This document shows, one piece after another, positions 4,361-51,294 of a stretch of DNA of 64,000 nt. The position numbers and the translations under genes were made by a program. The notes under the pieces were generated by a model. The model saw only the letters and a program-made list of their open reading frames with translations. It was not told where the DNA came from and did no database searches. The DNA comes from Minisyncoccota bacterium (GTDB taxonomy: Bacteria > Patescibacteriota > Minisyncoccia > Phycocordibacterales > Phycocordibacteraceae), in assembly GCA_018062765.1 (NCBI GenBank), contig JAGORR010000001.1, positions 356,930-420,929 on the forward strand, in the 5' to 3' direction. How positions within the stretch are numbered: position 1 is the stretch's first letter; every line of letters begins with the position of its first letter.

Positions 4361-4581
4361 ACCGCGGATAAGGGTCATCTGCGTCGTTTCTCATTCCGGT
4401 GCTCGCTCACCGTATTTCAATACGGCTCGCTTCGCTCCTCATTCGTGCCTCGCATCTGAACCCTTCTTCACGGTTTATTGAGTGACTTAGTATCTGCTTC
4501 CAATTTTCGCCAAAATTCCTGTGGCGTTGCGCTTTATAGGTGTCGGGCTACACTCGAGAACGGAAAGAAAGGAGGGCCCCA

Positions 4582-5238
4582 ATGGACCTCGATGCACTTA
4601 AGGAACGTTTCTTCAGGCTCTGGCATTTCTCAGACGCCAAGCAGGTCATCTGGAACGATGTGATCGCTCGTTATGGTGAGAAGCATCGCTTCTACCACAC
4701 GCTCGAACATATCGGCCACTGTCTCACGGAGTTCGATATCGCCCGCAAGTATCTCACGCTTCCGCGCGCGACCGACTGGGCGGCTATCGAGCACGCGCTC
4801 TGGTTCCACGACATCGTCTACAGCACGACGTCGTCCGGTAACGAGGAGAAGAGCGCGGAGTACGCCTATCGCGAGCTTCGCGGCATGGACATGCCGGTGC
4901 TGTTCTGTGATCAGGTGAAGCGGCTCATTCTCGTGACGAAGCTGCATCTGCCGCAGGCTCCCGACGAAGAGGTGATGTGCGACATCGACCTCGCCATCCT
5001 CGGGCAGCCTCGGCTGCGTTTCTCGCAGTACGAGGAATACATCAAGTTCGAATACGGAGTCGAGCCGCACGTTTTTTCCGCCGGCCGCGCGAAATTCCTC
5101 GTCGGTATGCTGAAGCGGCGACCCATCTTCTCGACGAGCCTCTTCCAACATGCGTACGAGCTCCATGCGCGCGCGAACATGGCTCTCTCCCTGCATCAGT
5201 GCGAGATAGATGTCGACATGCATGAGAATGCCGCCTGA
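4582..5238 (+). CDS. HD-domain metal-dependent phosphohydrolase-like protein
   Basis: ORF track 4540..5238. ATG 4582 is preceded by AAAGGAGGG. FYHTLEHIGH ... LWFHDIVY gives the H...HD pattern. Confidence 0.6.
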   Translation: MDLDALKERFFRLWHFSDAKQVIWNDVIARYGEKHRFYHTLEHIGHCLTEFDIARKYLTLPRATDWAAIEHALWFHDIVYSTTSSGNEEKSAEYAYRELRGMDMPVLFCDQVKRLILVTKLHLPQAPDEEVMCDIDLAILGQPRLRFSQYEEYIKFEYGVEPHVFSAGRAKFLVGMLKRRPIFSTSLFQHAYELHARANMALSLHQCEIDVDMHENAA

Positions 5239-5260
5239 CAACGAGTGTGACGACTGTAAG

Positions 5261-5284
5261 CGGGACGCTTAGGCGTCCCGTTTT
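5261..5284. terminator. bidirectional intrinsic terminator between convergent genes
   Basis: CGGGACGC-ttag-GCGTCCCG followed by TTTT. It lies between the stop at 5238 (+) and the stop at 5285 (-). Confidence 0.65.
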
Positions 5285-5935
5285 CTATTTGCTACGGAGC
5301 GCAAGCAAGGAGAGGATGCCGGAGAACGCACCAGCGGACAGTAGTCCGTGCCACAGGAAGTGAGTGCCCATTGTTATGTACTCGCATGCCCACAAATCGA
5401 TAGACCGGAACAGGAGCGCGGATAGGGCGAGCACGAGTGCAAGGATGCCAAGGAGAGCGGCGCGTCCGGATACTCGATAGCTCCTCCACGTGAGTAAAAG
5501 CCCAAGGAGGACAACCGGAATTGCGACGCCTGCGAAAAAAGGTAGTTCAGGGAAGGTGGCATCGACCAGGAGTGCCGAGAGGTATTGGAGCGCGAGAAAT
5601 GCGACAAACATGAGGCCGGCGCCGAGCCATCCGTAGAACGTGCGAGCCCAAAAATATACGAAGAACAGTAGGAATAGAAGTCCTGGTGTCGTGTCGAAGG
5701 CAAGTGCCCACGGGGTGCGCAGTCCGTGCCATAGTAGGCTCCCAACGCCGTTCGTGACTAAGAGAATGCCAAGTACCCAGAGATCGTACGCGCGCGGTGC
5801 GCGGCGGTACACAAGGTAGAGTGCGAGGAGTCCGAACGCGACAATGATGAGGTTGGACCATGTATTCCATGTTTCCGCAGGGAACGCGGTTAACACATCT
5901 GGCGTCTCACAATACTGCGGACCGAAAGGGTACAT
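5285..5935 (-). CDS. polytopic membrane protein (about 7 TM, ceramidase/hemolysin-III-like topology)
   Basis: 216-aa ORF of consecutive hydrophobic helices (WNTWSNLIIVAFGLLALY...HFLWHGL). The family call is tentative. Confidence 0.6.
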   Translation of the reverse strand: MYPFGPQYCETPDVLTAFPAETWNTWSNLIIVAFGLLALYLVYRRAPRAYDLWVLGILLVTNGVGSLLWHGLRTPWALAFDTTPGLLFLLFFVYFWARTFYGWLGAGLMFVAFLALQYLSALLVDATFPELPFFAGVAIPVVLLGLLLTWRSYRVSGRAALLGILALVLALSALLFRSIDLWACEYITMGTHFLWHGLLSAGAFSGILSLLALRSK

Positions 5936-5986
5936 GCGCCTAGTTTAGCAAATCGCTATTCCTCGACCTCCTTGCTCTCTCCTAGT

Positions 5987-6026
5987 TTGCTCCATCTCGG
6001 TGCCTATAGGCACCGAGATGGAGCAA
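5987..6026. repeat. perfect 40-nt palindrome, copy 1 (TTGCTCCATCTCGGTGCCTA|TAGGCACCGAGATGGAGCAA)
   Basis: Read directly. A second copy at 62402-62441 differs only by a compensatory T..A to C..G pair. Confidence 0.9.
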
Positions 6027-6175
6027 AGAAGTTCACGGCATATCACGTTGTTACATGTACTAGCTCGCGTTTGCGCGCAAAAGCTCGCGCGCACCCAATA
6101 GTACTCACATCCTGTTCCTACTCTCCCCAAAAACCGACGACCCAAGGCAGATGCGTGCTATTTTTATACATATAT

Positions 6176-8011: not shown

Positions 8012-8464
8012 ATGAAACGCACAGCCATCTTCGTTTCTGCACTCTTGCTGACTCTTTCAGCGATGTCCGCCCCAGTGTACGCGCAGGACATGAATCTTGG
8101 GGGTGGAGCGACCGGTAACGCTAGTACCAATCTCGGCGGAGGTCCGTCAGGTAACGGTACCAATCTGGGGGGAGGCTCTCAGGGGTGCGGATTCCTTTTG
8201 AATCCACTCGACAACGAGTGCAATAGCGACATGACGCTCAATGATCTCCTTAGCAAAATATTGAACGTCATCGTCCAGATAGGTGTAGTCGTGCTCACTA
8301 TGATGCTCGTCTACGTTGGTTTTCTCTTTGTCACTGCCCAAGGGAACCCGGAAAATCTTTCCAAGGCCCGGAGCGCACTCATATGGACGATAATCGGCGG
8401 CTTCCTCGTGCTTGGCGCGAGCGTCATTGCAGAGGCGGTTAAGTCGACGGTTGAAGCGCTCTGA
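8012..8464 (+). CDS. VirB2/TrbC-like two-helix pilin paralogue 1 (signal peptide, NLGGG x3 repeats)
   Basis: Signal peptide ...APVYA/QD. C-terminal TM1-loop-TM2 module VVLTMMLVYVGFLFVTAQGNPENLSKARSALIWTIIGGFLVLGASVI. Confidence 0.7.
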   Translation: MKRTAIFVSALLLTLSAMSAPVYAQDMNLGGGATGNASTNLGGGPSGNGTNLGGGSQGCGFLLNPLDNECNSDMTLNDLLSKILNVIVQIGVVVLTMMLVYVGFLFVTAQGNPENLSKARSALIWTIIGGFLVLGASVIAEAVKSTVEAL

Positions 8465-8465
8465 T

Positions 8466-8738
8466 ATGGACGGCGAGGAGGTTATCGTCGTGGGACAGAA
8501 AGGCACCTTCGCCTCGATGGTGTACAAGTTCACCGGCTTCATTGACTCCAGTATTATCCCGTTATTGTTTGCGGCCGCATTCCTCGCGATGCTGGTGGGC
8601 ATATTTCGCTATTTCATGATTCCGGGCGAGGAGAATTTGCAGAAGGGTCGCCAGTTTTTGCTGTGGGGCGGTATCGCTTTTGTGTTCATGTTCCTTATCT
8701 GGGGGCTCGTAAACCTACTCCTCGATTCGGTATTCTAG
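8466..8738 (+). CDS. VirB2/TrbC-like pilin paralogue 2 (no signal peptide)
   Basis: ORF track 8412..8738, with the start at ATG 8466. Module is FLAMLVGIFRYFMIPGEENLQKGRQFLLWGGIAFVFMFLIWGLVNLLL. Confidence 0.65.
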   Translation: MDGEEVIVVGQKGTFASMVYKFTGFIDSSIIPLLFAAAFLAMLVGIFRYFMIPGEENLQKGRQFLLWGGIAFVFMFLIWGLVNLLLDSVF

Positions 8739-8786
8739 CTGTTTATAAGTACACATAGCCTGGCTCAGTACTGATACGCTAAACGT

Positions 8787-9215
8787 ATGAAAAAGACATT
8801 CTCCGCCCTATTGTTTTCACTAGCGCTCATGTTCACACTTACACCGTCCATTGCCTTTGCGCAGGGCCAGCAGCAGCCGCAACCTGATCAGCAGGGCACG
8901 GGTGAGTCACAGCCGAGCGAGCTCGAGCTTCGTATCGGATGGCTTCTCGACTTCGTCGATGGGTACGTCATTCCGCTCATATTCGGACTCGCATTCGTCG
9001 TATTCATCTGGTTCGTGTTCGTGTACTTCATCCTTGGCGGAGCTGAGGAAGAGCAGCGCGCTAAAGGAAAGCAGTTCCTGTTGTGGAGTCTTATTGGGTT
9101 CGTACTCATGCTCTCCTTGTGGGGTATCGTGAACCTGCTTCAGAACACCATAGGATTCGATAATAACTCCAAGCCGTGTCTGCCGGTGTTCGAACAGGAC
9201 AACGAAGACTGCTAA
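8787..9215 (+). CDS. VirB2/TrbC-like pilin paralogue 3
   Basis: Signal peptide ...SIAFA/QG. Module is FVVFIWFVFVYFILGGAEEEQRAKGKQFLLWSLIGFVLMLSLWGIVNLLQ. Confidence 0.7.
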   Translation: MKKTFSALLFSLALMFTLTPSIAFAQGQQQPQPDQQGTGESQPSELELRIGWLLDFVDGYVIPLIFGLAFVVFIWFVFVYFILGGAEEEQRAKGKQFLLWSLIGFVLMLSLWGIVNLLQNTIGFDNNSKPCLPVFEQDNEDC

Positions 9216-9299
9216 TGCGGTTGTCCCCACAGTGCACCCCATACGATTGACTTCGCGCCAAAGCCGCTTACCCTTAGTACATATCCGCTTACCACTGCT

Positions 9300-9689
9300 A
9301 TGAAGAAAATTCTCTTGCTCGTCGCTCTGTTCACCATCCCGGCCATTGCGTTCGCGCAGTTTGGCGAAGGCGGTAATAATCAGGACCTTGGCGATCTCGG
9401 TCAGGAGTTCACTGACATCATCAATAACATCGCGGTTCCGCTTATCTTCGCGCTCGCGTTCGTCATCTTTATTTGGGGAGTATTCAAGTACTTCATTCTT
9501 GGTGGCGGAGACGAGGAGGCTCGCGAGAAAGGTCGCGACCTCATGATTTGGGGACTTCTGGGATTCTTCTTCATGATTTCAGTCTGGGGACTCGTGAATC
9601 TCGTCGTGAACACCATCGACCTGGAGCAAAGCGGAGCACCGGACGAAAATGACTTGCCGGACGCTCCGGGAGTCAGGGACTCGAACTAA
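9300..9689 (+). CDS. VirB2/TrbC-like pilin paralogue 4
   Basis: Signal peptide ...AIAFA/QF. Module is FVIFIWGVFKYFILGGGDEEAREKGRDLMIWGLLGFFFMISVWGLVNLVV. Confidence 0.7.
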   Translation: MKKILLLVALFTIPAIAFAQFGEGGNNQDLGDLGQEFTDIINNIAVPLIFALAFVIFIWGVFKYFILGGGDEEAREKGRDLMIWGLLGFFFMISVWGLVNLVVNTIDLEQSGAPDENDLPDAPGVRDSN

Positions 9690-9704
9690 CTCATAGTGTA
9701 GGCG

Positions 9705-9729
9705 AAAAGACCCGCTCGGCGGGTCTTTT
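9705..9729 (+). terminator. intrinsic terminator
   Basis: aaaaGACCCGC-tcg-GCGGGTC-TTTT. Confidence 0.7.
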
Positions 9730-9783
9730 GCTATCCCCGATTAGTACGTGCCATAGATGAGTGCGGATATATACTGAACAGTA

Positions 9784-10053
9784 ATGAACGAAAGAGTAGA
9801 GATACCGCTTCTTGAGGGCATCAAAACGCAGATAGTGAATCCCATCATCACGCTTCTAGCGCTTGGAGCATTTGTAATGTTTCTTTGGGGTCTCGTCGTA
9901 TTCATATGGAATGCCGGGGATGCGGAGGCGCAGTCGACGGGGAAGCGCGTCATGCTGTGGGGTGTCATTGGGCTTGTTGTCATATTCGGTGCGTGGAGCA
10001 TTGTGGAGCTTATCGGAAGCACGATAGGGGTAGACCCAAATCAGTACCGGTAA
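9784..10053 (+). CDS. VirB2/TrbC-like pilin paralogue 5
   Basis: 89 aa. Module is GAFVMFLWGLVVFIWNAGDAEAQSTGKRVMLWGVIGLVVIFGAWSIVELIG. Confidence 0.65.
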   Translation: MNERVEIPLLEGIKTQIVNPIITLLALGAFVMFLWGLVVFIWNAGDAEAQSTGKRVMLWGVIGLVVIFGAWSIVELIGSTIGVDPNQYR

Positions 10054-11974: not shown

Positions 11975-12128
11975 TGCTGGGGGAGGGCTTGGTCAGGCGC
12001 TCATTCGTCGCCGTCGCTCCTCACTCCGCCTGACCACCCTCGCGTGACAGACTTTGCTAAGTCTGTAGACCGCGCTCGGTTTCAAGTCTCCACCCCATGC
12101 CATTGCGGCTGCTTGCGCAGCCTTTATG
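11975..12128 (-). repeat. tRNA-trailer structured element, copy A (distal to tRNA-Leu-TAG)
   Basis: In tRNA orientation the order is:
- hairpin GGCTGC-gcaa-GCAGCC
- GGAGACTTGAA, antisense to the tRNA T-arm
- ACAGACTT-AGCA-AAGTCTGT
- GGTCAGGCG..(GAGTGAGG..GACG loop)..CGCCTGACC
- CAAGCCCTCCCCCAGCA, mimicking the tRNA 3' end. Confidence 0.8.
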
Positions 12129-12282
12129 TGCTGGGGAGGGCTTGGCGAAGCGTCTGCCGATCGTCGTCACTCCCGGCTCCGCTCGGCCCTGCTCGCACGA
12201 CACGGCGTGCTCGCCGCGTAGACCGTGCTTGCGTTCAAGTCTCCACCCATGCCTCTGCGCCAGGCTTGTGTCTGGTTACGTG
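12129..12282 (-). repeat. tRNA-trailer structured element, copy B (adjacent to tRNA-Leu-TAG)
   Basis: Also 154 nt. In tRNA orientation the order is:
- GCCT-ggcgcag-AGGC
- GGAGACTTGAAC
- ACGCGGCG-AGCA-CGCCGTGT
- GCCG-gGAGTGACGACGat-CGGC
- CCAAGCCCTCCCCAGCA. Confidence 0.8.
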
Positions 12283-12364
12283 TGCTGGGGAGGAGACTTG
12301 AACTCCTAACCCGTGAGGGACATGGTCCTAAGCCATGCGCGTATACCAATTCCGCCACCCCAGC
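12283..12364 (-). tRNA. tRNA-Leu (anticodon TAG), class II long variable arm
   Basis: Hand-folded. Acceptor GCTGGGG/CCCCAGC. Anticodon arm CATGG-cTTAGga-CCATG. T arm AGGAG-TTCAAGT-CTCCT. Discriminator A. No encoded CCA. Confidence 0.9.
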
Positions 12365-12416
12365 GTCCTTCACAGAATACTACGATTTGTTATATTGCGT
12401 TCTGTCGCGCCTATAG

Positions 12417-12489
12417 CTCAGTTGGTAGAGCAGATCCCTCTTAAGGATAAGGTCCCTGGTTCGAGCCCAGGTAGGCGCACTAACACGAA
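12417..12489 (+). tRNA. tRNA-Lys (anticodon CTT)
   Basis: Hand-folded. Acceptor GCGCCTA/TAGGCGC. Anticodon loop CTCTTAA. T arm CCTGG-TTCGAGC-CCAGG. Confidence 0.9.
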
Positions 12490-12639
12490 AAAGTCCTGGT
12501 CTGCACCAGGACTTTTCGGTTAGTGCGCGACGGAACCATGTTTTGCGAGCGCGCAAAACCGGTGAGCCAGGGTCGTAGCCTGAAGTGAGTGTCGACGAGC
12601 TTCAGGGCTATGACCACGTGCGAGGCACAGCGATGTTTT
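12490..12639 (+). repeat. tRNA-trailer structured element after tRNA-Lys
   Basis: Order:
- terminator-like H1 AAAAGTCCTGGT-ctgc-ACCAGGACTTTT
- TGCGCgaCGGAACCA (antisense-like to the tRNA 3' end)
- GTTTTGCG-AGCG-CGCAAAAC
- GGTCGTAGCCTGAAG-tgAGTGTCGACGag-CTTCAGGGCTATGACC
- ..GAGGCACA (compare tRNA end TAGGCGCA). Confidence 0.65.
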
Positions 12640-12725
12640 GTCTGCAGATAAAACCACGAGCCGGGATAGCGGAATTTCATGAATAATGACTAATGAAATA
12701 TCCGTGACCACAAATTGCAAAACGT

Positions 12726-13562
12726 TTAGATACCAGCGTACTTTCTGAATCGTCCAATTAGGTCAGTCGTGAGGGTCCCTGGCTTACCGCTGCCTACCTT
12801 ACGGTCATCGATGCGGATGACCGGCACTACGTCCTTGAACGACGAGGTGATAAACACCTCATCAGCGTTCCAAACGTCGTCCATGCTGACTGCGCGCTCT
12901 TCGGTCTTGTAACCGGCTTCAGCCGCAAGCTCTAGGATGACCTTCCTGGTAATGCCATGCAATACGCCCTCCTTCGCCGTGATAACCACTTTGTCCTTCA
13001 CGATGAACGCGTTTGATGTCGAGCACTCGAGCATGTTGCCGTTTGCGTGGTACAGGATTTCGAGTGCGTTCGCGGCTCGTCGCTTAGGCTGTAGCATCAC
13101 CGCATTTATGTAATTGATGGTCTTGTACTCCGGCATCATGCGCTGGTGCTCGCTCGTGATGAGAGAAACGCCATCAGTAAACACTTCGGGCGCAAGCACA
13201 AATGCCGGCTCGCAATTTATGAAGAATGTCTCGCGTCCAGGAACGTGCTCAAGCCCTCCGAGCGCTTCTCCGCCAGTAAGAACGACACGTACGGTTGCGC
13301 GCGTATCTGGTGAGTTGCGCTTGGCGATCTCTATCAGGGCAGCCTCAAACGCGTCGCGCTCGATAGGAATGGTAAGGGAGAGGGCAGCCGCTGACTTCAG
13401 TAACCGCTGCCAGTGGTCTTCGAAGCGAAACGGCTTTCCGCCAATGACCGTAATGCCCTCATAGACACCGTAGGAGCGTAGGACGCCGAGATCGAGGATG
13501 CCCACCTTCGCCTCCTGAAGCGGAAGAAATGCCCCATTAAGAAAGGCGACAGGCTCGTTCAT
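12726..13562 (-). CDS. class IV aminotransferase (branched-chain / D-amino-acid aminotransferase family)
   Basis: ORF track 12726..13700 runs into tRNA-Leu, so the start is taken at ATG 13562 (MNEPVAFLNG). Family pattern includes EYKTINY (PLP lysine region) and FITSSFKDVVPV. Confidence 0.85.
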   Translation of the reverse strand: MNEPVAFLNGAFLPLQEAKVGILDLGVLRSYGVYEGITVIGGKPFRFEDHWQRLLKSAAALSLTIPIERDAFEAALIEIAKRNSPDTRATVRVVLTGGEALGGLEHVPGRETFFINCEPAFVLAPEVFTDGVSLITSEHQRMMPEYKTINYINAVMLQPKRRAANALEILYHANGNMLECSTSNAFIVKDKVVITAKEGVLHGITRKVILELAAEAGYKTEERAVSMDDVWNADEVFITSSFKDVVPVIRIDDRKVGSGKPGTLTTDLIGRFRKYAGI

Positions 13563-13625
13563 CGGAGGATTATAACAGCAGTAATGTGTTATGGGTTTCT
13601 CGATATATGCTAGAACTAGTCGTAC

Positions 13626-13708
13626 GCCAGGGTGATGGAACGGTAGACATAGGGGACTTAAAATCCCCAGCTGTAACAAGCGTGTGGGTTCGACTCCCAC
13701 CCCTGGTA
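13626..13708 (+). tRNA. tRNA-Leu (anticodon TAA)
   Basis: Hand-folded. Acceptor GCCAGGG/CCCTGGT. Anticodon arm GGGGA-cTTAAaa-TCCCC. Long variable arm. T arm GTGGG-TTCGACT-CCCAC. Confidence 0.9.
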
Positions 13709-13738
13709 CTCGGTAGGGCGTGATAGGATTCTGCCATC

Positions 13739-13810
13739 GGCCCGATGGTGAAGTGGTAACACGGGGGACTGCAAATCCTCTATGCGCGGGTTCAATTCCC
13801 GCTCGGGCCT
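13739..13810 (+). tRNA. tRNA-Cys (anticodon GCA)
   Basis: Hand-folded. Acceptor GGCCCGA/TCGGGCC. Anticodon loop CTGCAAA. T arm GCGGG-TTCAATT-CCCGC. Confidence 0.9.
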
Positions 13811-13950
13811 CAAATTGGACGCGCAGCGTCTAATAGCGGGAATTGAAGGCCGTAGCTATATCGTGCGAGCACGCACGATTGCGAGGCGGGGTCACGAATA
13901 AGGTCTGCTCGACGGAGCAGACCTTATTCGTGACCAGTACCGCTCTGTCT
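13811..13950 (+). repeat. tRNA-trailer structured element after tRNA-Cys
   Basis: Order:
- GACG-cgcag-CGTC
- AGCGGGAATTGAA, an exact antisense of the tRNA-Cys segment TTCAATTCCCGCT
- ATCGTGCG-AGCA-CGCACGAT
- 20-bp hairpin GTCACGAATAAGGTCTGCTC-GACG-GAGCAGACCTTATTCGTGAC
- CAGTACCGCTCTGTCT (compare tRNA CAATTCCCGCTCGGGCCT). Confidence 0.75.
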
Positions 13951-14303
13951 TAAATTTGGTTCCCTAACTCATCCATTCGCTGACGGTTCTTCTCCCCAGC
14001 ATCGTGCTCAAACTTTACAGACGGAATGGCGCGCAGACGGGACTTCTGCTTGAGGAAGGTCCGGAATTCATCGCGGTTGCGATTTAAGAAATCTAGCGCG
14101 TAGGGAAGGGCGGTGTCAGGGAACACGGTGACGAACAAGGTGGCGCGGTCACCTCTTGAGGAGAGTACTGCGCGTGTCACCGTTATAAGCGATGTGTTAT
14201 TCGATTCGCGCGCAATAAACTCAGCCGCTAGATGCGCTACCTGCTCCTCGGCGCGCTCGCCGTGATGATTTGCCTTGCCGCCCCCGGTAAATGGAAGGCT
14301 CAT
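13950..14303 (-). CDS. rbfA: ribosome-binding factor A
   Basis: 117 aa. RbfA-like core (AEFIARESNNTSLITVTRAVLSSRGDRATLFVTVFPD). Overlaps the infB stop by 4 nt, matching the conserved infB-rbfA order. Confidence 0.85.
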   Translation of the reverse strand: MSLPFTGGGKANHHGERAEEQVAHLAAEFIARESNNTSLITVTRAVLSSRGDRATLFVTVFPDTALPYALDFLNRNRDEFRTFLKQKSRLRAIPSVKFEHDAGEKNRQRMDELGNQI

Positions 14304-15802
14304 GCTATATCCGTGCGAAAAGCTGCGACAACATCCCCGCCCTGCACCTCCGCCTTTGTCTCTATCTGCATACCAAAATCTCCTTCTACCTTAATCTCCG
14401 AGACATCCGCTCGTGCCTGCTGGAGGTTTACAATCTTTCCACGACCAATTTCTTCGTCCTGACGAAGTATCTTCACGAGCGCATTGAGAGCGAGCGTACC
14501 GGACACATGCTTTGCTCCGACAACCTTTTTCGTAGAGGTTGCACTGAAGACTTTAAGCAGTTTCGCCTCGCCGGTGACAGTCTCAACGTTTATTTTTGGC
14601 GTACGCTCGATTAGAAGTGCTTCTACACGCTCCTTGAGCTCGTAAATAATAGTAAATGTTTCTATGAGAACGCCAGAGCGCTCGGCGACATCGCGCGCAG
14701 CTGCATCGACGCTTACGGAGAACCCAATAACGACGCCTCCTGATGCTTGCGCGGTCTTTACGTCCGCTTCACCCACCGCGCCAATGCCCGTCTGGATGAT
14801 ACGGATAGCCGCACGCTCATGAGTAATCTTCGCGAGCTCGTGCTTGATTGCTTCTATGCTCCCCGTTACATCAGCCTTAATAACGAGTGCGAGGGTAGTG
14901 ATGCTGTCGTTTGTCTCCACATTCGCTGCTTGCTCCTTCTTGGCCTCGGCATTGAACGCCGTGGCAAGCGCCTCTGCGTCTTTGCGGGACTTTGCGGAGG
15001 AAAAGGGCGTGCCTGCAGGCGGAAGGATGGAAAACCCGGATATGCGTGCGGGCGCCGAGGGGAGTGCTGCATCGACGCGCTTTCCGGCGAAGTTCTCAAT
15101 AAATCGCACTGGTGCGTATGCGCCTCCTGCGACTACAAACGAGCCTGACGAGAGCGTGCCATCCTTGACTATCAAGGTCGCGGAAAGTCCCTGCTTAGGG
15201 TCCTGCGTGGATTCGAGAACGAATCCGGAGGCAGGAGCGTCCGCGTCAGCGGAAAGCTCTGCAAGGTCTGCGGTAAGAAGCACGAGATCCAAAAGTTCAG
15301 GCACGCCCACACCAGACTTTGAAGAGACGCCCGCGTATGGAATATCTCCGCCGAGTCCTTCGAGGTAGACACCGTTCTCAAGAAGCGATGACTTTGCGCG
15401 CTCCGCGTCAGCACCATTCTTATCAATCTTCGTGAGCGCGACGACGAACGGTGTCTTCGCCTCCTGAATCGACGCAAGTGCCTCCAGCGTCTGTGGCTTT
15501 ACGCCTTCATCGGCTGCGACGACGAGGATTGCGACATCAGCTACCGCAGCGCCGCGCGCGCGAAGCGCACGGAATGCCTCATGACCTGGGGTGTCGAGAA
15601 AGGTGATTTTGCGCACAGCGCCCTCGTGCTCGTGTAGAGCCTCGTATGCGGACACGTGTTGCGTGATGCCGCCTGCCTCGCCTGCGGTAACGTTCGCCTT
15701 ACGGATGTAGTCAAGCAAGGATGATTTGCCGTGGTCGATGTGACCCATAACAGCAACGATGGGAGGGCGTGGGGAGGCGGCCATATTCGCCGATTTCATC
15801 AC
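14300..15802 (-). CDS. infB: translation initiation factor IF-2 (short form lacking the N-terminal extension)
   Basis: 500 aa. G-domain VAVMGHIDHGKSSLLD, DTPGHEAF, TKID. C-terminal IF-2 domains are present. Confidence 0.95.
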   Translation of the reverse strand: MMKSANMAASPRPPIVAVMGHIDHGKSSLLDYIRKANVTAGEAGGITQHVSAYEALHEHEGAVRKITFLDTPGHEAFRALRARGAAVADVAILVVAADEGVKPQTLEALASIQEAKTPFVVALTKIDKNGADAERAKSSLLENGVYLEGLGGDIPYAGVSSKSGVGVPELLDLVLLTADLAELSADADAPASGFVLESTQDPKQGLSATLIVKDGTLSSGSFVVAGGAYAPVRFIENFAGKRVDAALPSAPARISGFSILPPAGTPFSSAKSRKDAEALATAFNAEAKKEQAANVETNDSITTLALVIKADVTGSIEAIKHELAKITHERAAIRIIQTGIGAVGEADVKTAQASGGVVIGFSVSVDAAARDVAERSGVLIETFTIIYELKERVEALLIERTPKINVETVTGEAKLLKVFSATSTKKVVGAKHVSGTLALNALVKILRQDEEIGRGKIVNLQQARADVSEIKVEGDFGMQIETKAEVQGGDVVAAFRTDIA

Positions 15803-22138: not shown

Positions 22139-22239
22139 TGCGGCTCCCAGGTGGTCACAAATACTTCCGCGTCGACACTTGGAAGTTTCGCGACCCCGCC
22201 AAAAAGGAAAAACCTGGAGCAGTCCAGGTTTTTCCTTTT
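22139..22239 (-). repeat. tRNA-trailer structured element after tRNA-Trp (short form, no AGCA hairpin)
   Basis: In tRNA orientation the order is:
- GGAAAAACCTGGA-ctgc-TCCAGGTTTTTCC then TTTTT
- TGGCGGGG (antisense to tRNA end GCCCGCCA)
- GGTC..CTTCC-aAGTGTCGACGc-GGAAG..GACC
- ACCTGGGAGCCGCA (compare tRNA CTACTGGGCCCGCCA). Confidence 0.65.
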
Positions 22240-22313
22240 TGGCGGGCCCAGTAGGAATCGGACCTACGCTAACGGTTTTGGAGACCGTTGTACTACCACT
22301 ATACGATGGACCC
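22240..22313 (-). tRNA. tRNA-Trp (anticodon CCA), CCA end encoded
   Basis: Hand-folded. Acceptor GGGTCCA/TGGGCCC. Anticodon arm ACGGT-cTCCAaa-ACCGT. T arm GTAGG-TCCGATT-CCTAC. Confidence 0.88.
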
Positions 22314-22411: not shown

Positions 22412-23368
22412 ATGCGCCGCTTGGCACTTTACCTCCTCGCAGCTTCTCTCATACCGCTTGCCGCGGCGGCACAAGGGCTTCCGTCAGGCTCAATCATCCC
22501 GGACCTCGATGAGGGAGATCAGAACCTGCGCACGTGCGCTGCAGGTTGGAAGGCGGTTCTCATAATATCGGGAGGGTTCCTAGAGCTCGCAATTTACATC
22601 GCGATGCTTATCGCCGTTCTCGTTATCGTCTATGCAGGGATTATATTCCTGTTTAATGCGACAAACCCCGAGAACCTGTCGAAAGGGAAAAAGATTCTTG
22701 GAAACGCGGCGATTGGTCTTCTTATTACGCTTTGCGCATGGCTACTTGTGAATACGGTGCTCACAAGCCTGGGCGCAGGAGACATCGCAAGCCGCACAAG
22801 CGTCATAGGTTCAGGCGGCTCGCTCTGTATCACGATACAACCTCCGCAATCTCAAATACCAACCAGTCAGGAAGTAGCTGCCGGTTTGCCACTGGCACCA
22901 CCTCCTCGAGGTACCGGCTCGTGTGACCCGATTGCTGTGCGCGCAGCCGCAGCGGCCGGTGGGTACCAAATCTCGGAGCGAGAGGCGAACACATTTGCCT
23001 GCCTTGCAGGTCCCGAGAGCTCGTGCGGCGCAAATGTCGATGGTGCGACGACGCCTTCTGGGCAGCGTACGAGTGCAGCGGGTCCGTGGCAGAACATTCT
23101 TGGTTTTAAGGATAAGTGCCACTCACTCAACATCCCCGCCTGTGGCAACTTGCAGTGTCACCAGGCATTTTCAGGCGGAGTGGAGAAGTCTGATCCGGCC
23201 TCGAGAGCTCTCGCTGCCAAGTGTCGTCAGGCACTTGCAAACCTTACGTGCGCTGCCGCCGCAGCCGTGTGTCTTAATAACGCGAGCGGAAACGACTTCA
23301 GCGACTGGACTGCGGATTCGCGCAGCTCGAAACAGAAGAAGTGTATTCGCGACCATGCGGGGCTCTAG
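22412..23368 (+). CDS. pilin-like N-domain fused to a Cys-rich lytic-transglycosylase-like (SLT-like) domain
   Basis: 318 aa. Signal peptide. N-module is IAVLVIVYAGIIFLFNATNPENLSKGKKILGNAAIGLLITLCAWLLVNTVL. The C-domain has SLT-like motif order: PESS, GPWQNIL, LNNASGNDFSDW. Confidence 0.6.
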   Translation: MRRLALYLLAASLIPLAAAAQGLPSGSIIPDLDEGDQNLRTCAAGWKAVLIISGGFLELAIYIAMLIAVLVIVYAGIIFLFNATNPENLSKGKKILGNAAIGLLITLCAWLLVNTVLTSLGAGDIASRTSVIGSGGSLCITIQPPQSQIPTSQEVAAGLPLAPPPRGTGSCDPIAVRAAAAAGGYQISEREANTFACLAGPESSCGANVDGATTPSGQRTSAAGPWQNILGFKDKCHSLNIPACGNLQCHQAFSGGVEKSDPASRALAAKCRQALANLTCAAAAAVCLNNASGNDFSDWTADSRSSKQKKCIRDHAGL

Positions 23369-23927: not shown

Positions 23928-24839
23928 ATGCGACGTACTACGACATTGCTCCTGCTTCTCCCGTTGCTACTTACAGCTATGCCCGCGCATGCGCAGTTCA
24001 CCGAGGGCTGGACCATCGTCCCGGCAGCGTGCCATTCGTGCCCTGCGGCTTGGGTTTGCGTACTTGAGATGCTCAACAATCTGGTGACGCTCATCATGAC
24101 CATCGCGGTCTTAATCGTCGTACTCGTCATCACCTACGCCGGCATCCTGCTTGTGTTTACTGCGACGAACCCCGAGAACAAGAGCAAAGCAAAAAGCATG
24201 CTTATTAATGCTGCGGTAGGTCTCGTCATCGCTCTTGGCGCGTGGCTCATCATCGATAAGGTCCTCGAGTCTTTGGGTGCGGGCGGTATAGACGAGACAA
24301 CGCGCGTTATTGGTACCGGTGGCAGCGCATGTGTTGTTGCTCAGGATCCGATCACTGAGCCGCCTGAGGGAACGGATCCATCGCCTATTACTCCCGGTCC
24401 TGGCGGTGGAGGCAGCGGCGCTAATTGCCCGGTCCCGGCGGCGTCCGGGATGGTGGCATTCCCTGCGGAGGCTACAAGCGGTGAAACTGAATACGCAACA
24501 CCGAGTACGGTCGAGAACTTCCTTGCGATGCGCGCCGCAGCGCTTGCCGATGGAATTGACATTAAGGTGACTGACGGATATCGGTCCGAAGCCGAACAGG
24601 TTCAGTTATGGTATCGCTACAATCAGGACACGAGCCAAGTCGCAAGGCCGTGTACGCTAGGTGGCAGCGGTTCAAACCACAACTCAGGTGTCGCTCTGGA
24701 CCTCACCGTCGGCTGTAGAAAGACAGATAGTTCCTGTGATAGCGCCCAATACCGATGGCTTAAAGCAAATGGTTCTCAGTGGGGCTTCAACAACAATTTG
24801 CCTACCGATACGGTGCACTGGTCACCATCGGGTCGCTAG
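23928..24839 (+). CDS. pilin-like N-domain fused to a peptidase M15 (VanY-type D,D-carboxypeptidase) domain
   Basis: 303 aa. Signal peptide. N-module is IAVLIVVLVITYAGILLVFTATNPENKSKAKSMLINAAVGLVIALGAWLIIDKVL. M15 motifs are VTDGYRSEAEQ, SNHNSGVALDL (SxHxxGxAxD) and DTVHW. Confidence 0.75.
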   Translation: MRRTTTLLLLLPLLLTAMPAHAQFTEGWTIVPAACHSCPAAWVCVLEMLNNLVTLIMTIAVLIVVLVITYAGILLVFTATNPENKSKAKSMLINAAVGLVIALGAWLIIDKVLESLGAGGIDETTRVIGTGGSACVVAQDPITEPPEGTDPSPITPGPGGGGSGANCPVPAASGMVAFPAEATSGETEYATPSTVENFLAMRAAALADGIDIKVTDGYRSEAEQVQLWYRYNQDTSQVARPCTLGGSGSNHNSGVALDLTVGCRKTDSSCDSAQYRWLKANGSQWGFNNNLPTDTVHWSPSGR

Positions 24840-28196: not shown

Positions 28197-28362
28197 CAAA
28201 GCGCGAAGCGCGCATGGTCGGGGAGTACCCTGCCTGCGCAGGGTACGTGAGAGACTTGAACGCCGGAGCGATGATTCGTCAGCAGACGAATCCGCGAGGC
28301 AAGGCTATGAAAATTCTCGAGTGACGGCGAGAGAATTATTCCTGGCCAAGCCTTCCCCGGCA
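28197..28362 (+). repeat. tRNA-trailer structured element, copy 1 after tRNA-Leu-CAA
   Basis: Order:
- TACCCTG-cctgcg-CAGGGTA
- GAGAGACTTGAAC, a 13-nt exact antisense of the tRNA T-arm
- GATTCGTC-AGCA-GACGAATC
- AATTCTC-gAGTGACGGCg-GAGAATT
- CCAAGCCTTCCCCGGCA (mimic). Confidence 0.8.
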
Positions 28363-28509
28363 CATGAAGCACGCGCAGCGTGCGAAGGGCTCGTGGGTGG
28401 GACTTGAACGCCGGAGCGATGCTTCATCAGCAGATGAAGCCGTGAGCTGGGGTCGCGGAAAATGCCATGTGACGACATGGCATTTATTCGCGACCAAGCC
28501 ACCCCGGCA
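28363..28509 (+). repeat. tRNA-trailer structured element, copy 2 after tRNA-Leu-CAA
   Basis: Order:
- GCACG-cgcag-CGTGC
- GGGTGGGACTTGAAC
- GCTTCATC-AGCA-GATGAAGC
- GGTCGCG..AAATGCCATGT-GACG-ACATGGCATTT..CGCGACC
- AAGCCACCCCGGCA. Confidence 0.8.
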
Positions 28510-28555
28510 CGTGACAAATATGTTGCGCGCATAAGCGCATGCTAAAATCCTTCAC

Positions 28556-29575
28556 ATGACAGAGCCGATGCGATCAGTAGAGCCGACACGATACGACTCC
28601 GTGTATTGGGTCGATACTGACAAGGTCAAACCGAATCCCTATCAGCCCCGGAAGGAGTTCGACGAAGAGCGTCTGAAGTCGCTTGCAGAAAGTATTCGCC
28701 AGTACGGGATACTGCAGCCCTTGACCGTAACACGCGTCGAGATAGCGCGCATGGATGGAGGACTCGCGACCGAGTACGAGCTCATCGCTGGAGAGCGCCG
28801 GCTCCGTGCCTCGAAGCTTATCGGTCTCAAGCAGGTACCGGTCGTTATTCGTATCGGAGAAGAATCAGGCAAGGTAAAGCTCGAGCTTGCCATCATCGAG
28901 AACCTGCAGCGTGAGGACCTTAACGCAATCGACCGAGCGCAGGCACTGAACCAGCTCGTAAAGGAGTTCGATCTCTCTCATGCGGAAGTGGGTGAAAAGA
29001 TAGGACGCTCGCGTGAGTATGTCTCGAACTCCATCCGTCTGTTGGCGCTCCCGCCGCAAGTGCAGCAGGCTGTCGTCAATCGCGAGCTTTCCGAGGGGCA
29101 TGCCCGGGCACTCCTCATGATCGCCGATAAGCCGGTTGAGATGGAAACTCTGTTCAAGGAAATTGTCCTTAAGAAAACGTCTGTGCGCCACGTCGAGCAG
29201 ATGGTGCGTCGACTTGCACAGGACAAGATTCGCAAGCACGACAAGACACCAGAGATGATGGCGCTCGAGAAGTCGCTTACGGAAACCCTAGGTACGCGCG
29301 TCCTCATCGAGAATCGCCCGCAAGGCGGACGTCTCCTCATCGAGTTTTTCTCGCCAGAGGACCTTTCCAATATAGTCTCTCAGCTTGCGACGAAGGAGGA
29401 TACTTCTTTCGGAGAGCCGGGAGCACCAGAGGTGTCCGCAACTTCCCATATCGAACATGCGAACACGTCTCAGATTACGGATGAGGTAGCAACAACTCCG
29501 CTAGCAGCACCAGCACCAGCATCAACAGCAGCAGAGCAGGATGATCTTGATTCCATCAAGAACTTCAGCGTCTAG
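28556..29575 (+). CDS. parB: ParB/Spo0J chromosome-partitioning protein
   Basis: 339 aa. Contains IRQYGILQPLTV and YELIAGERRLRASKL (ParB box), then an HTH region. No parA gene is adjacent. Confidence 0.92.
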   Translation: MTEPMRSVEPTRYDSVYWVDTDKVKPNPYQPRKEFDEERLKSLAESIRQYGILQPLTVTRVEIARMDGGLATEYELIAGERRLRASKLIGLKQVPVVIRIGEESGKVKLELAIIENLQREDLNAIDRAQALNQLVKEFDLSHAEVGEKIGRSREYVSNSIRLLALPPQVQQAVVNRELSEGHARALLMIADKPVEMETLFKEIVLKKTSVRHVEQMVRRLAQDKIRKHDKTPEMMALEKSLTETLGTRVLIENRPQGGRLLIEFFSPEDLSNIVSQLATKEDTSFGEPGAPEVSATSHIEHANTSQITDEVATTPLAAPAPASTAAEQDDLDSIKNFSV

Positions 29576-39443: not shown

Positions 39444-39538
39444 CCAACTTGAGCGAGGTTCTTGCGTCCGAGACGCATTGAACTAAGCCAAGACTCCATT
39501 CAGAAAAGGCATACCGGCTGAGAGTCGCATTCAGAACG

Positions 39539-39562
39539 AAAAACCGCCCTAGGGCGGTTTTT
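39539..39562 (+). terminator. intrinsic terminator
   Basis: AAAAACCGCCC-tag-GGCGGTTTTT. Confidence 0.75.
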
Positions 39563-39585
39563 CGTTTGCGCGTTATAATTGGATT

Positions 39586-40233
39586 ATGAAGGTTACGAAA
39601 TTCGCCCATTCCTGTCTCCTCATCGAAACCGATGAAGTTCGTATCCTTACCGATCTGGGCTCTTGGAATACTGGGGTTCCAGATATATCCGATCTCAATG
39701 CAGTTCTTATAACCCACGAACATGCGGATCATTTCGAGCCAGAGAAGCTCAAGGTTGTTCTAGAGAAGAACCCCGAAGCGAAGGTTATAACTCATGCGGC
39801 TGTAGGCTCGAAGCTCGAGGAAGTGGGAATCGCCTATACCACTATCGAGCCAGGGCAGAACATCGACGTAAACGACGTTTCTATTGAAAGCTACGGAACT
39901 GACCATGCGATTATCTACGGCGATACTTCACCTTGCCGCAACACGGGCTACCTCATTGCCGGAAAGCTATTTATTCCAGGTGATGCGCTTCATGATGTGC
40001 CACCAAAACAGGTTGAGATTCTTGCGCTCCCAACAGGGGGCCCATGGCTGAAGATCTCAGAAGCTATCGACTACGGTAAGGCAATAAAACCGAAGATTAC
40101 ATTTCCAATACACGACGCGATGTATACCGATGCATACAAGCAAACTAGTATTCCTCGCTGGATCGGGACGCAGCTTGAGGCGAACGGAACTAAGTTTATA
40201 AACATGGCGGATAACTCCACTGAAGAATTCTAG
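39586..40233 (+). CDS. MBL-fold metallo-hydrolase
   Basis: 215 aa. Contains LITHEHADH (HxHxDH). Confidence 0.85.
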   Translation: MKVTKFAHSCLLIETDEVRILTDLGSWNTGVPDISDLNAVLITHEHADHFEPEKLKVVLEKNPEAKVITHAAVGSKLEEVGIAYTTIEPGQNIDVNDVSIESYGTDHAIIYGDTSPCRNTGYLIAGKLFIPGDALHDVPPKQVEILALPTGGPWLKISEAIDYGKAIKPKITFPIHDAMYTDAYKQTSIPRWIGTQLEANGTKFINMADNSTEEF

Positions 40234-42902: not shown

Positions 42903-42989
42903 CATCGCGCGCCGCACGCTCTGTGCGGCGCGTTCCTTTATCCCTCATCGCGAGGCATGGTGCTCTACGCGTAGCCTATACTAGAGCGC

Positions 42990-45731
42990 ATGGAGGGAAC
43001 ACGGCAGCTTACGACTCCCGAGGAGGAGCTTGCCTACTTGCGTGCGCAAGTAGAGGAGAAAGAACGCGAGCTCGCGGGGCGCGCGCAGGAAGCACCGCGC
43101 AACACTCTCGTGCACGAGCGTATCCTTCATCACCGGCGCGAGATGCCAGAGACGGTGCTCGCTCCGTCCTACAAGCTACCTGAAGCTGAAGTGGAAGGCA
43201 TCGCGCTGGATCTCGATCCGGATGATAACGACGCAACGATGGCGGAACTTCAGGGAATCATGGAGGAGAAGGGTATCAAGAATGCGCTCTCGGTCCTTGA
43301 AAAGCTCCGGAATCCGCATCTCGATGACGACTTCCATCGATTCCTGGTGCAGTACGTCGTCGCTGGAATGCAGGTGAAGGGGCTCGGGGAACGGGAACCA
43401 GCATGGAAGGCGCTCCACATGACTCTCTACGAGGTCATCCTTCCGGAGCCCGGCAAGGACTCGGACGCGCGAGAGAAGACCTTGAAGGAACTCATCTCCT
43501 CGATGGAGCAGTTCTATGCAGGCATGCTCTCGGTGGGGGATGCGAGCGCGAGCGAGCCGGGCTATTTCTCGATGGAGCTCGCTGTTCCCGCTAATCGTCC
43601 GGAGCTCCTTTTCTATGTCGCTGTGCCTAACGGCAAGCGCGCGCTCTTTGAGCAGCAGCTCTTGGCAACCTTTCCGAACGCGAACATTCGTCCGCAGCCG
43701 AACGATTACAACATATTCAGCGAGGATGGCGTTGCCGTAGGCGCCTCTGCGACGCTAGCTGACAAAGGCGTGCTTCCTCTCAAGGATTATGCTGATTTCG
43801 ACTACGACCCGTTGAATACGGTTCTGGGTGCCTTCGCGAAGATCGAGAAGGCGAGCGAGGGAGCGGCGCTCCAAGTCATCATCGAGCGCGATACGCACCA
43901 CCTGGAACATTACCGCCGGATACTCGGAGCGCTCCGTCGCGGCGAATCGAAGGATCGTGCGCTCTCGATGCCGGAGACATTCGTGGGCGAGGCCGCGCGC
44001 GAGATCGGGTCAGCGCTCTTCCCGGGCTCACGCAAATGGGAGAACGAAGTTGAGAAGAGAGCCGAAAGGAAAGATGGGAACCAGGCTTTGATTGAGCAGA
44101 TAGAGAAGAAGATCGCAGCTCCCATCGTAAAGACGACGCTCCGTCTCATGGTGTCCTCGCCGACCCACACCCGCGCGGAGTCAGGGCTCGCGGACCTTGA
44201 GGCGGCATTCAATCAGTTCACCAACACCGTAGGCAACAAAATCAACTGGAATCGGTTCTCAGGCACCAAGGTACAGAGCCTTTTCCATGCATTCTCTTAC
44301 CGTTTGCCGGCGAAGGACGCGATACCGCTTTCTCTTCGAGAGGTCACGAGCCTCTACCACTTCCCGCCCGAGGGCATCAGCTCTACGCCGCAACTCCGGC
44401 AGTCGCGCTTCACTGCGGCCGCTGCGCCCTTGGATCTCCCTGACTCGGGGACGTATCTCGGGGATAACGAGTTCCGCGGACGGAAGACTGCGGCATTCCT
44501 GTCGCCGGAGGACCGCATGCGGCACCTCTATGTCGTCGGACAGACGGGAACCGGTAAGTCGGTATTCATGAGGAATCTCGCCATACAGGACATCAAGGCA
44601 GGGAACGGCGTCTGCTTCATCGACCCCCACGGGAACGACATCCTCGATATCCTCGCGGCTGTACCTCCCGAGAGATACGAGGATGTCATCTATTTCGATC
44701 CGGCGAACCTGGCGCGTCCGTTCGGCCTCAACTTGCTTGAATACGATGCGAGCCGCCCAGAGCAGAAAACCTTCATCGTTAATGAGATCCTCGCGATATT
44801 CCGCCGCCTCTACGGGGACGTGCCGGAGTCGATGGGTCCTGCGTTCGAGCAGTACTTCCGCAACTCAACCCTCCTGGTGATGGAGGACCCGGCATCGGGC
44901 TCGACCTTACTCGATATCGCGCGAGTCCTTTCGAACAAGGAGTTCCGCGACCTGAAACTCTCGCGAAGTAATAATCCGGTCATAAACCAGTTCTGGAACG
45001 AGATAGCGACGAAGGCTGAAGGAGAGGCATCGCTTCAAAACATCGTTCCGTACATCACTAACAAGTTCGATGACTTCACCGCGAACGACTTCATGCGGCC
45101 AATCGTCGGGCAGCAGGAATCCTCGTTCAAATTCCGTGAGGTGATGGACAACAAGAAGATACTCCTTGTGAACCTCTCTAAAGGAAGGCTCGGGGAACGA
45201 AACGCCAACCTCCTGGGCCTCATCCTCGTCGGGAAGATATTCATGGCTGCGCTCTCTCGTGCAGATAACCCGAGGGCAGACTACGCGCCGTTCTACCTCT
45301 ATATCGACGAATTCCAGAACATAACTACGGACTCCATACCGGGAATCCTCTCCGAGGCTCGCAAATACCGGCTTTCGCTTACCATGGCGCACCAGTTTCT
45401 GGCGCAGGTGGATGAGAAGGTGCGGGATGCCGTGTTCGGGAACGTCGGCTCCATGGCCGTGTTCCGCGTCGGCGAGGAAGATGGCGAGTACTTCGAGAAG
45501 CAGTTCGCGCCGGTGTTCTCCGCGCTCGATTTCGTGAACATAGAGAATTACAACGCGTACGTCAGACTCCTTGCGCGCGGCGTGCCGCAGAAGCCATTCA
45601 ATATAAAGACGCCGCCACCGGCCGCCACGAACCCTGCGCAGGTGGACGACCTCAGAGAGCTCTCAGCACTCGTCTACGGCCGCGACCGTACACAGGTGGA
45701 AAACCTTATCAGAAGCAGGTACATGTCATAA
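42990..45731 (+). CDS. TraD/VirD4-like FtsK-HerA-superfamily ATPase (type IV coupling-protein-like) with a large soluble N-terminal domain
   Basis: 913 aa. Walker A VVGQTGTGKS. Walker B FYLYIDEFQN. SEARKYRLSLTMAHQFLAQ is typical of the TraD/TraG C-terminal region. I found no N-terminal TM helix. Confidence 0.7.
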   Translation: MEGTRQLTTPEEELAYLRAQVEEKERELAGRAQEAPRNTLVHERILHHRREMPETVLAPSYKLPEAEVEGIALDLDPDDNDATMAELQGIMEEKGIKNALSVLEKLRNPHLDDDFHRFLVQYVVAGMQVKGLGEREPAWKALHMTLYEVILPEPGKDSDAREKTLKELISSMEQFYAGMLSVGDASASEPGYFSMELAVPANRPELLFYVAVPNGKRALFEQQLLATFPNANIRPQPNDYNIFSEDGVAVGASATLADKGVLPLKDYADFDYDPLNTVLGAFAKIEKASEGAALQVIIERDTHHLEHYRRILGALRRGESKDRALSMPETFVGEAAREIGSALFPGSRKWENEVEKRAERKDGNQALIEQIEKKIAAPIVKTTLRLMVSSPTHTRAESGLADLEAAFNQFTNTVGNKINWNRFSGTKVQSLFHAFSYRLPAKDAIPLSLREVTSLYHFPPEGISSTPQLRQSRFTAAAAPLDLPDSGTYLGDNEFRGRKTAAFLSPEDRMRHLYVVGQTGTGKSVFMRNLAIQDIKAGNGVCFIDPHGNDILDILAAVPPERYEDVIYFDPANLARPFGLNLLEYDASRPEQKTFIVNEILAIFRRLYGDVPESMGPAFEQYFRNSTLLVMEDPASGSTLLDIARVLSNKEFRDLKLSRSNNPVINQFWNEIATKAEGEASLQNIVPYITNKFDDFTANDFMRPIVGQQESSFKFREVMDNKKILLVNLSKGRLGERNANLLGLILVGKIFMAALSRADNPRADYAPFYLYIDEFQNITTDSIPGILSEARKYRLSLTMAHQFLAQVDEKVRDAVFGNVGSMAVFRVGEEDGEYFEKQFAPVFSALDFVNIENYNAYVRLLARGVPQKPFNIKTPPPAATNPAQVDDLRELSALVYGRDRTQVENLIRSRYMS

Positions 45732-51175: not shown

Positions 51176-51266
51176 GTCAGTGCCCTCCTCGGGCGTTTCA
51201 GTTGATTGGTTTCAGTTTCGGAAGGGAATTGGCTCAGATGAGCCTCCTCCGGCACTCCTGCAGTCA

Positions 51267-51294
51267 AATATACATGATTATAGTAGCTTGTCAA
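51267..51294 (-). promoter_or_regulatory. sigma70-like promoter (TTGACA-16 nt-TATATT)
   Basis: Minus strand reads cTTGACAagctactataatcatgTATATTtg, upstream of the lipoprotein gene. Confidence 0.5.

Follow-up and report, generated by a model that had tools for sequence, protein, structure and literature searches.

The stretch of DNA analysed here (64 kb, the window) belongs to a metagenome-assembled genome of an uncultured Candidatus Paceibacterota (Parcubacteria / CPR), with housekeeping gene content that includes gyrA, a T4SS-pilin cluster, infB, clpB, parB, topA, dprA, serS, dnaX, tgt and uvrBAC. The same perfect palindrome lies in two of its spacers, one of 240 nt between divergent genes and one of 278 nt between co-directional genes:

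5285-5935, minus strand: ceramidase-like gene, ATG at 5935, left neighbour of copy 1
5986-6027, no strand: palindrome copy 1, perfect, 21+21 nt, zero spacer, TATA centre
6176, plus strand: ATG of a SAM methyltransferase gene, right neighbour of copy 1, which ends 149 nt before it
62279, plus strand: stop of uvrC, left neighbour of copy 2, which begins 122 nt past it
62402-62441, no strand: palindrome copy 2, perfect, 20+20 nt, zero spacer
62558, plus strand: ATG of ddl, right neighbour of copy 2, 116 nt past the palindrome

Both copies are intergenic, as a first-pass annotation of this DNA had stated, and coding sequence in the window holds none. The 40-nt palindrome described there at 5987-6026 (TTGCTCCATCTCGGTGCCTA/TAGGCACCGAGATGGAGCAA) is present and even longer than reported, one extra pair extending this core to 5986-6027. 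Copy 2 reads TTGCTCCATCCCGGTGCCTA/TAGGCACCGGGATGGAGCAA at 62402-62441; the form TTGCCTCCATCCCGG was not found. In both copies the arms are 100% complementary with zero spacer. The two differ only at T5997, which becomes C62412, and at A6016, which becomes G62431. These are mirror positions, so copy 2 carries C at arm position 11 and G at position 30 of the 40-mer and keeps its symmetry, exactly as first described.

With 38 of 40 nucleotides identical (95% over 40 nt; direct-repeat family D8), the pair is the sole high-identity dispersed direct repeat of the 64-kb window, which holds two copies of the palindrome, standing alone 56.4 kb apart. Searching the window with the 16-nt core at up to three mismatches returned the two copies alone, and a search for further arm copies at up to five mismatches found none except a chance coding match inside gyrA. 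By our own calculations, about 6e-8 perfect 40-nt palindromes are expected in 64 kb, and, given two substitutions, a mirrored complementary second change has a chance of about 1/117. The predicted RNA hairpin of copy 1 reaches -45.1 kcal/mol in its 101-nt context (z = -7.9), and the DNA hairpin of the 42-mer -23.9 kcal/mol (z = -12.5).

The centre and right arms of both copies also occur in independent Logan assemblies of two samples, indicating that the palindromes are not assembly artefacts. At both loci and in both samples the Logan contigs (k=31; L021, L022, L023 and L024) begin 7-9 nt left of the palindrome centre, ending inside the palindromes because these exceed k. Such break points are too uncertain for inferring left arms, and the right-side parts were used for comparison. 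Perfect palindromes longer than k break de Bruijn-graph contigs and are therefore systematically lost, or left at contig ends, in short-read metagenome assemblies. The palindrome pair is a real, non-random and conserved feature.

Extent of the repeat unit

Shuffled sequences equalled or beat the observed local alignment score of the flanks in 406 of 2000 cases for the 80 nt upstream and in 616 of 2000 for the 100 nt downstream. On the left, CCTAGT at copy 1 and TTCAC at copy 2 are followed by TTGC, and the right flanks are AAAG and AATG. Neither copy has a target-site duplication or flanking direct repeat, and the flanks share no GTAG/CTAC-type tetranucleotide beside the hairpin. The repeat unit is the 40-42 nt palindrome alone, with sharp edges. 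A larger unit or a MITE was rejected on the alignment scores and the missing target-site duplication. The palindrome resembles MITEs of two abutting terminal inverted repeats in its perfect inverted halves and its insertion-like presence and absence among relatives; unlike them, it brings no target-site duplication, is accompanied by unrelated extra spacer DNA and has no parent insertion sequence that we could see.

A CCTCCTT tract had been reported before both copies. It is indeed there, at 5967-5973 and 62387-62393, but the association is weak: its offsets to the palindrome differ (13 nt at copy 1, 8 nt at copy 2), the window contains 25 such motifs, and the flanks align no better than shuffles. 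A role of CCTCCTT/AAGGAGG as a Shine-Dalgarno or anti-Shine-Dalgarno partner was rejected on the unequal offsets, the 25 occurrences and the lack of a properly spaced start on the minus strand.

Several other candidates were set aside. Small open reading frames starting from ATGGAGCAA inside each arm are conserved no further than Met-Glu-Gln. As recombination sites the copies would bound a 56-kb segment, but a relative without the palindromes has the methyltransferase gene and ddl collinear as well, at a distance of about 59 kb. The palindrome is unlike parS, and the window, which encodes ParB at 28556-29575, holds no match to canonical parS TGTTTCACGTGAAACA at up to three mismatches anywhere along its length; a relative described below, despite conserved ParB recognition, has an unrelated palindrome. 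In TIGR stem-loop units the loops contain box C/D motifs as well as spacers (PMC12045711). CRISPR/TIGR-type arrays do not fit this architecture, as the copies are isolated, form no tandem arrays and have a loop of 4 nt.

Promoters and terminators around the palindromes

Just 5 of the 59 window genes have a Shine-Dalgarno-like motif, and at many first genes a TAnnnT hexamer stops 6-7 nt short of the ATG (TATACT at ddl, TGCTAAAAT at parB, TATAAT at 39586, TATACT at 42990 and TGCTAAACT at the ceramidase-like gene). Gene-start segments with such -10-like hexamers include 62546-62560, 28541-28558, 39571-39588 and 42975-42992. The scarcity of Shine-Dalgarno motifs, together with -10-like hexamers abutting ATGs, suggests that leaderless mRNAs dominate this genome. 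We infer that the genes flanking the palindromes are leaderless or nearly so, with these putative promoters:

5942-5950, minus strand: extended -10 TGCTAAACT of the ceramidase-like gene, ending 6 nt before the ATG
6156-6164, plus strand: extended -10 TGCTATTTT of the methyltransferase gene, ending 11 nt before the ATG
62546-62551, plus strand: -10 TATACT of ddl, ending 6 nt before the ATG

The palindromes would therefore lie outside the mRNAs of these genes, their centres at about -71.5 (ceramidase-like), -169.5 (methyltransferase) and -136.5 (ddl) from the predicted starts. Both copies had been placed upstream of a plus-strand gene; the distances are right (149 and 116 nt before the ATG), but the framing misleads, because the putative leaderless promoters abut the ATGs, copy 1 has divergent neighbours and copy 2 lies 122 nt past the uvrC stop.

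These distances bear on whether the palindrome is an operator, that is, a site in duplex DNA bound by a lineage-specific regulator, dimeric or tetrameric, of the ceramidase-like and/or methyltransferase gene at copy 1 and of ddl at copy 2, a reading that we consider distinctly unlikely. Like operators of dimeric regulators (CIRCE/HrcA and LexA boxes, for example), the palindrome combines dyad symmetry, perfect here to the very centre, with sequence conservation and a place in promoter-bearing spacers, and the centre of copy 1, about 71.5 bp upstream of the predicted ceramidase-like start, is at a plausible activator position. However, the other starts, at -136.5 and -169.5, show no common geometry with it, so that the promoter distance varies as it does not at CIRCE/HrcA or LexA-type sites. 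The uninterrupted, spacerless symmetry of 40-42 bp is about twice the usual operator length, the adjacent genes are functionally unrelated, and no DNA-binding regulator gene, cognate or otherwise, lies beside either copy. The mirrored double substitution (about 1/117 by chance) is what a hairpin would be expected to show, not independently evolving half-sites.

The usual terminators of this genome consist of an A-run, an 8-12 bp GC stem, a 4-nt loop and a T-run, and stand in convergent or co-directional spacers. Neither palindrome spacer has a T-run or terminator-like site on either strand, in agreement with the first-pass remark that no T-run follows the copies, and the palindrome, with its arm of 20-21 bp and no A- or T-run, forms a stem twice as long. 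Copy 1 is the sole large hairpin within a well-defined divergent spacer. The only other such hairpin, with a stem of 12 bp, lies in the apparent 705-nt spacer between a minus-strand hypothetical gene (hyp242) and tgt (51176-51880), which probably contains an unannotated gene, given its terminator-like hairpin (51321-51349) and open reading frame (51151-51711).

We regard it as unlikely that the copies are plain terminators or RNA 3'-end hairpins, of uvrC in the case of copy 2 and of an unannotated small transcript in that of copy 1, with their shared sequence an incidental duplication. Like bidirectional intrinsic terminators, the palindrome is a stable, symmetric, intergenic stem-loop, and copy 2 stands between the uvrC stop, 122 nt before it, and the ddl promoter. 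Two other long T-run-free hairpins of the window (13890-13935 and 22195-22246) are at convergent or tRNA 3' ends, and an unannotated RNA would suit the spacer right of copy 1, which is 95% conserved in the closest relative against about 20% four-fold divergence. Unlike such terminators, however, the palindrome lacks the U-tract and A-run of the genome's norm, has a stem of doubled length and, at copy 1, sits between the 5' ends of divergent genes. Nor would independent terminators be expected to share 38 of 40 nucleotides. In a scan of the window against Rfam 15, tRNAs alone reached the gathering score, and the palindrome hairpins matched miRNA precursors far below threshold, at the level of noise. 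A larger structured RNA in the copy 1 spacer was rejected for want of covariation and of any Rfam match.

The window has three further long inverted repeats of unique sequence. A perfect hairpin with a 21-bp stem lies between tRNA-Cys and rbfA (13890-13935), and one with a 24-bp stem abuts the 3' end of tRNA-Trp (22195-22246), both without a T-run. A 32-nt zero-spacer palindrome follows tRNA-Gln (39535-39566).

Conservation in the closest relative

Both palindromes are present in a Logan sample (SRR22000166; contigs L023 and L024) with 88-93% DNA identity to the window. The right 30 nt of copy 1 are identical in L023, as are the right 27 nt of copy 2 in L024, the locus-specific G included. The 30 + 27 visible nucleotides thus show no change, and each locus holds its own variant (A or G). 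At four-fold degenerate sites the relative differs by 21.7% in the methyltransferase gene and 19.1% in ddl. The spacer right of copy 2 is about 20% different and carries a 26-nt indel; the probability of 0 changes in 27 at a rate of 18% is about 0.005. To the right of copy 1, 7 of 148 nt differ (6028-6175; 4.7%, or 95% identity).

Divergence from L023/L024 is mosaic, with differences at four-fold sites of 0% in a pterin-4a dehydratase gene, 3% and 10% in two pilin genes, about 20% in ddl and the methyltransferase gene and 42% in a solute-binding protein gene, which suggests recombination between strains. With such a mosaic, and a copy 1 spacer differing by only 4.7%, the argument from conservation is strong for copy 2 alone. 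Within that limit, the palindromes appear to have been kept perfectly self-complementary since the common ancestor with this relative. Selection on self-complementarity, proposed at first pass, is borne out by the mirrored pair and by the 57 visible nucleotides that stayed unchanged against four-fold divergence of about 19-22%. The two variants are older than the split from the relative, and the copies have not been homogenised with each other since. All visible positions being conserved in L023/L024 would also suit an operator.

Directly right of copy 2, L024 has a tandem expansion of the decamer GGCATGTATA (37-70 in the contig; about 62450-62470 in the window), and this spot is probably a local hotspot of length variation.

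Absence from more distant relatives

Beyond this relative, the same gene neighbourhoods occur without the palindrome. Contigs L034 and L035, from one ENA sample (71% identity in the ceramidase-like protein, 73% in Ddl), have both gene pairs with conserved core promoters, and the palindrome is absent from both of their short spacers (62 nt between the ceramidase-like and methyltransferase genes in L034, 53 nt between uvrC and ddl in L035). In L026 (JGI) the uvrC-ddl gap is 21 nt. Between gyrA and the methyltransferase gene, a 123-aa gene takes the place of the ceramidase-like gene in L029 and L031, which likewise lack the palindrome. In L036, gyrA directly precedes the methyltransferase gene with no gene between, and a different, terminator-like hairpin stands there, again without the palindrome.

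A different situation is found in L027 (GCA_964565655.1; Ddl 76%), whose uvrC-ddl spacer holds an unrelated perfect zero-spacer palindrome of 38 nt, GTAGAGGAGATGTATCATA/TATGATACATCTCCTCTAC, 40 nt past the uvrC stop and 79 nt before the ddl ATG. A perfect palindrome in this spacer has been gained or replaced more than once. Its position so soon after uvrC speaks for the terminator reading, and an unrelated palindrome at the same place speaks against an operator. To us it suggests that structure matters rather than sequence, and that genome-specific palindromes turn over.

The promoters themselves persist. The ceramidase-like geometry (TATAGT, 6 nt, ATG) recurs in L034, the methyltransferase -10 is kept in L029 and L034, both without the palindrome, and the ddl -10 is kept in L027 and L035. 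Conservation of the orthologous ddl and methyltransferase promoters without the palindrome (L027, L029, L034, L035) sets it further apart from CIRCE/HrcA or LexA-type operators. The DNA that holds the copies can be delimited as follows:

about 5976-6152, no strand: lineage-specific spacer DNA with copy 1, between the ceramidase-like and methyltransferase promoters; approximate, homology to L029, L031 and L034 resuming at about 6153
about 62280-62515, no strand: lineage-specific spacer DNA with copy 2, from the uvrC stop to the conserved ddl promoter; approximate, homology to L035 and L027 resuming right of the copy at CTGAAAC / CGTTATACT

Because the relatives have short spacers or a different palindrome at these sites, the palindrome is lineage-specific and lies in added spacer DNA. 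This DNA is large (about 180-235 nt) and its two stretches are mutually unrelated, which argues that the palindrome was not simply dropped alone into an existing spacer. It came to both of these unrelated spacers in the ancestor that the window genome shares with its closest relative. The first-pass annotation had named absence from all related genomes as an outcome that would count against its reading, and the comparison came out half that way: the closest relative carries the palindrome, and both sites lack it in every relative with a Ddl identity of 76% or less.

The region left of the methyltransferase gene is itself part of a lineage-specific replacement (4416-6152) between gyrA and that gene, comprising a hypothetical gene and the ceramidase-like gene (PF05875). 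The nearest homologues of the latter beyond the clade are alphaproteobacterial, and it scores poorly on window codon usage. In the Paceibacterota relative L027, SMODS / DncV-like nucleotidyltransferase and patatin genes, a CBASS-like defence pair, lie downstream of ddl (12014-14336).

Long palindromes in public collections

Scans with an 18-nt core found 9 loci among genome contigs and 11 among metagenome contigs, equal to the chance expectation; the source genome was not among them. A single long palindrome turned up among these matches, a 50-nt perfect zero-spacer palindrome in a Saccharibacteria metagenome-assembled genome (4972-5021 in L003, 6364-6413 in L011). It has the same 20-nt core as copy 2, CCGGTGCCTATAGGCACCGG, with unrelated outer arms. 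The match is possibly a coincidence, as CPR genomes may hold many long palindromes. More perfect hairpins, with stems of 17-24 bp, occur on the same Saccharibacteria contig. Viral contigs yielded one coding-sequence match and one ordinary terminator, and BLAST searches of plasmids and phages gave no meaningful match.

The recurrence of perfect zero-spacer palindromes, in L027 (38 nt), in L003/L011 (50 nt) and at 39535-39566 of the window, is one argument for a neutral by-product, made and kept perfect by fold-back or template-switch synthesis (quasipalindrome correction) and tolerated in a reduced genome with no function. Zero-spacer perfection and a self-complementary TATA centre are what a template switch would produce, an RNA loop needing neither, and arm-to-arm copying would yield the mirrored change directly. 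Three observations make this account decidedly improbable. Template switching leaves unexplained how the same 40-mer came to loci 56 kb apart; arm-to-arm correction would not slow substitution, yet 0 of 27 positions changed beside a spacer that is about 20% different; and the variant at each locus has not changed since before the lineages of the window and L023/L024 separated.

The L027 palindrome at uvrC-ddl, the Saccharibacteria 50-mer (a chance match being possible) and the TATA centres, found in three of five independent perfect zero-spacer palindromes, also led us to consider a CPR class of palindromes, 38-50 nt long, that are perfect, have zero spacer and a TATA centre, and occupy particular spacers such as uvrC-ddl. 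These could act as cruciform insulators between tightly spaced leaderless promoters, or be targets of a structure-specific protein or mobile system. In such a class, previously undescribed and belonging to Paceibacterota, perhaps to CPR more widely, the sequence would turn over between lineages and perfection would be kept within each. We regard this proposal as rather improbable.

A possible REP-like structural repeat

Most likely, the palindrome is a new low-copy palindromic repeat of a Paceibacterota genome, whose function we infer. The reading that we tentatively prefer, while holding it short of probable, is a REP/REPIN-like repeat of low copy number that forms a hairpin or cruciform, is under selection for self-complementarity and might serve as a transcription barrier. 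A dispersed 40-mer, its sharp edges, the mirrored change, conservation, lineage specificity and the L027 palindrome together fit a REP-like repeat better than an operator or an ordinary terminator. Of the three options originally offered (operator, RNA hairpin and REP-like element), the REP-like and hairpin options hold up best, and the operator fares poorly on length, distances, palindrome-free orthologous promoters and the symmetric change.

The palindrome would behave like a REP-type hairpin repeat, and its membership of that group is putative. Like REPs and REPINs (PMC3116915, PMC3337134), it is short, genome-specific, confined to spacers and able to form a hairpin in single-stranded DNA or RNA. 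It likewise persists by vertical inheritance, is a potential transcript-end or stability element and shows a compensatory change across the hairpin, in the mirrored T-A to C-G pair; such changes are described as frequent in REPINs (PMC3116915). The differences are also clear. REPs are imperfect palindromes interrupted by a loop or spacer; the present one has perfect arms and zero spacer. A REPIN comprises two REPs and a spacer (about 70-100 nt), as against one palindrome of 40-42 nt here. REP/REPIN families run to tens to hundreds of copies per genome, compared with two in 64 kb, and there is neither a GTAG-like flank nor a RAYT in the window. REPs are mobilised by RAYT Y1 transposases (PMC3116915, PMC3337134), and among about 50 window proteins scanned with Pfam we found no Y1/RAYT or other transposase. 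A cognate RAYT gene usually has REPs on its flanks. Copying between the sites might be the work of a Y1 (RAYT-like) transposase that binds hairpins and whose gene lies elsewhere in the genome, or of recombination.

We propose that the repeat acts through nucleic-acid structure rather than as a site that a dimeric regulator recognises by its sequence. In RNA or single-stranded DNA the structure would be a hairpin of 18-19 bp closed by a UAUA/TATA loop; in supercoiled DNA it could be a cruciform. Judged from position alone, its likeliest role would be that of a bidirectional transcription barrier or 3'-end structure. Copy 2 would then insulate the leaderless ddl promoter from uvrC read-through, and copy 1 would separate the back-to-back ceramidase-like and methyltransferase promoters. 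Two features weaken the case for a barrier: no T-run is present, and copy 1 has divergent neighbours and stands past no gene's 3' end.

Patescibacteria genomes are regarded as very compact and repeat-poor. To our knowledge, REPs have not been described in them, and a full-text literature search on REPs in Patescibacteria returned nothing relevant. If the palindrome belongs to a dispersed family, it would be the first described REP-like repeat in a Patescibacteria genome, and one would have to ask what copies it. Should it act as a transcription barrier, it would illustrate how an organism whose genes seem almost all leaderless, with promoters abutting their start codons, keeps neighbouring transcription units apart without canonical U-tract terminators. 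A conserved perfect 40-nt palindrome in a CPR genome is in any case noteworthy to the specialist, if not astonishing.

Other features of the window

The 358-nt spacer upstream of parB contains an imperfect 105-nt direct repeat (28253-28357 and 28401-28505; 71% identity, 148-nt spacing). Two partial tRNA 3'-end-like copies (ending …GTTCAAGTCTCCACCC; 12065-12095 and 12218-12248) lie in a 421-nt spacer beside tRNA-Leu (12282-12364) and may be remnants of integration sites. Several T4SS-pilin (PF18895) genes are found at 23928-24839, 8012-10053 and 22412-23368, and one open reading frame joins a pilin-like N-terminus to a VanY D-Ala-D-Ala carboxypeptidase domain.
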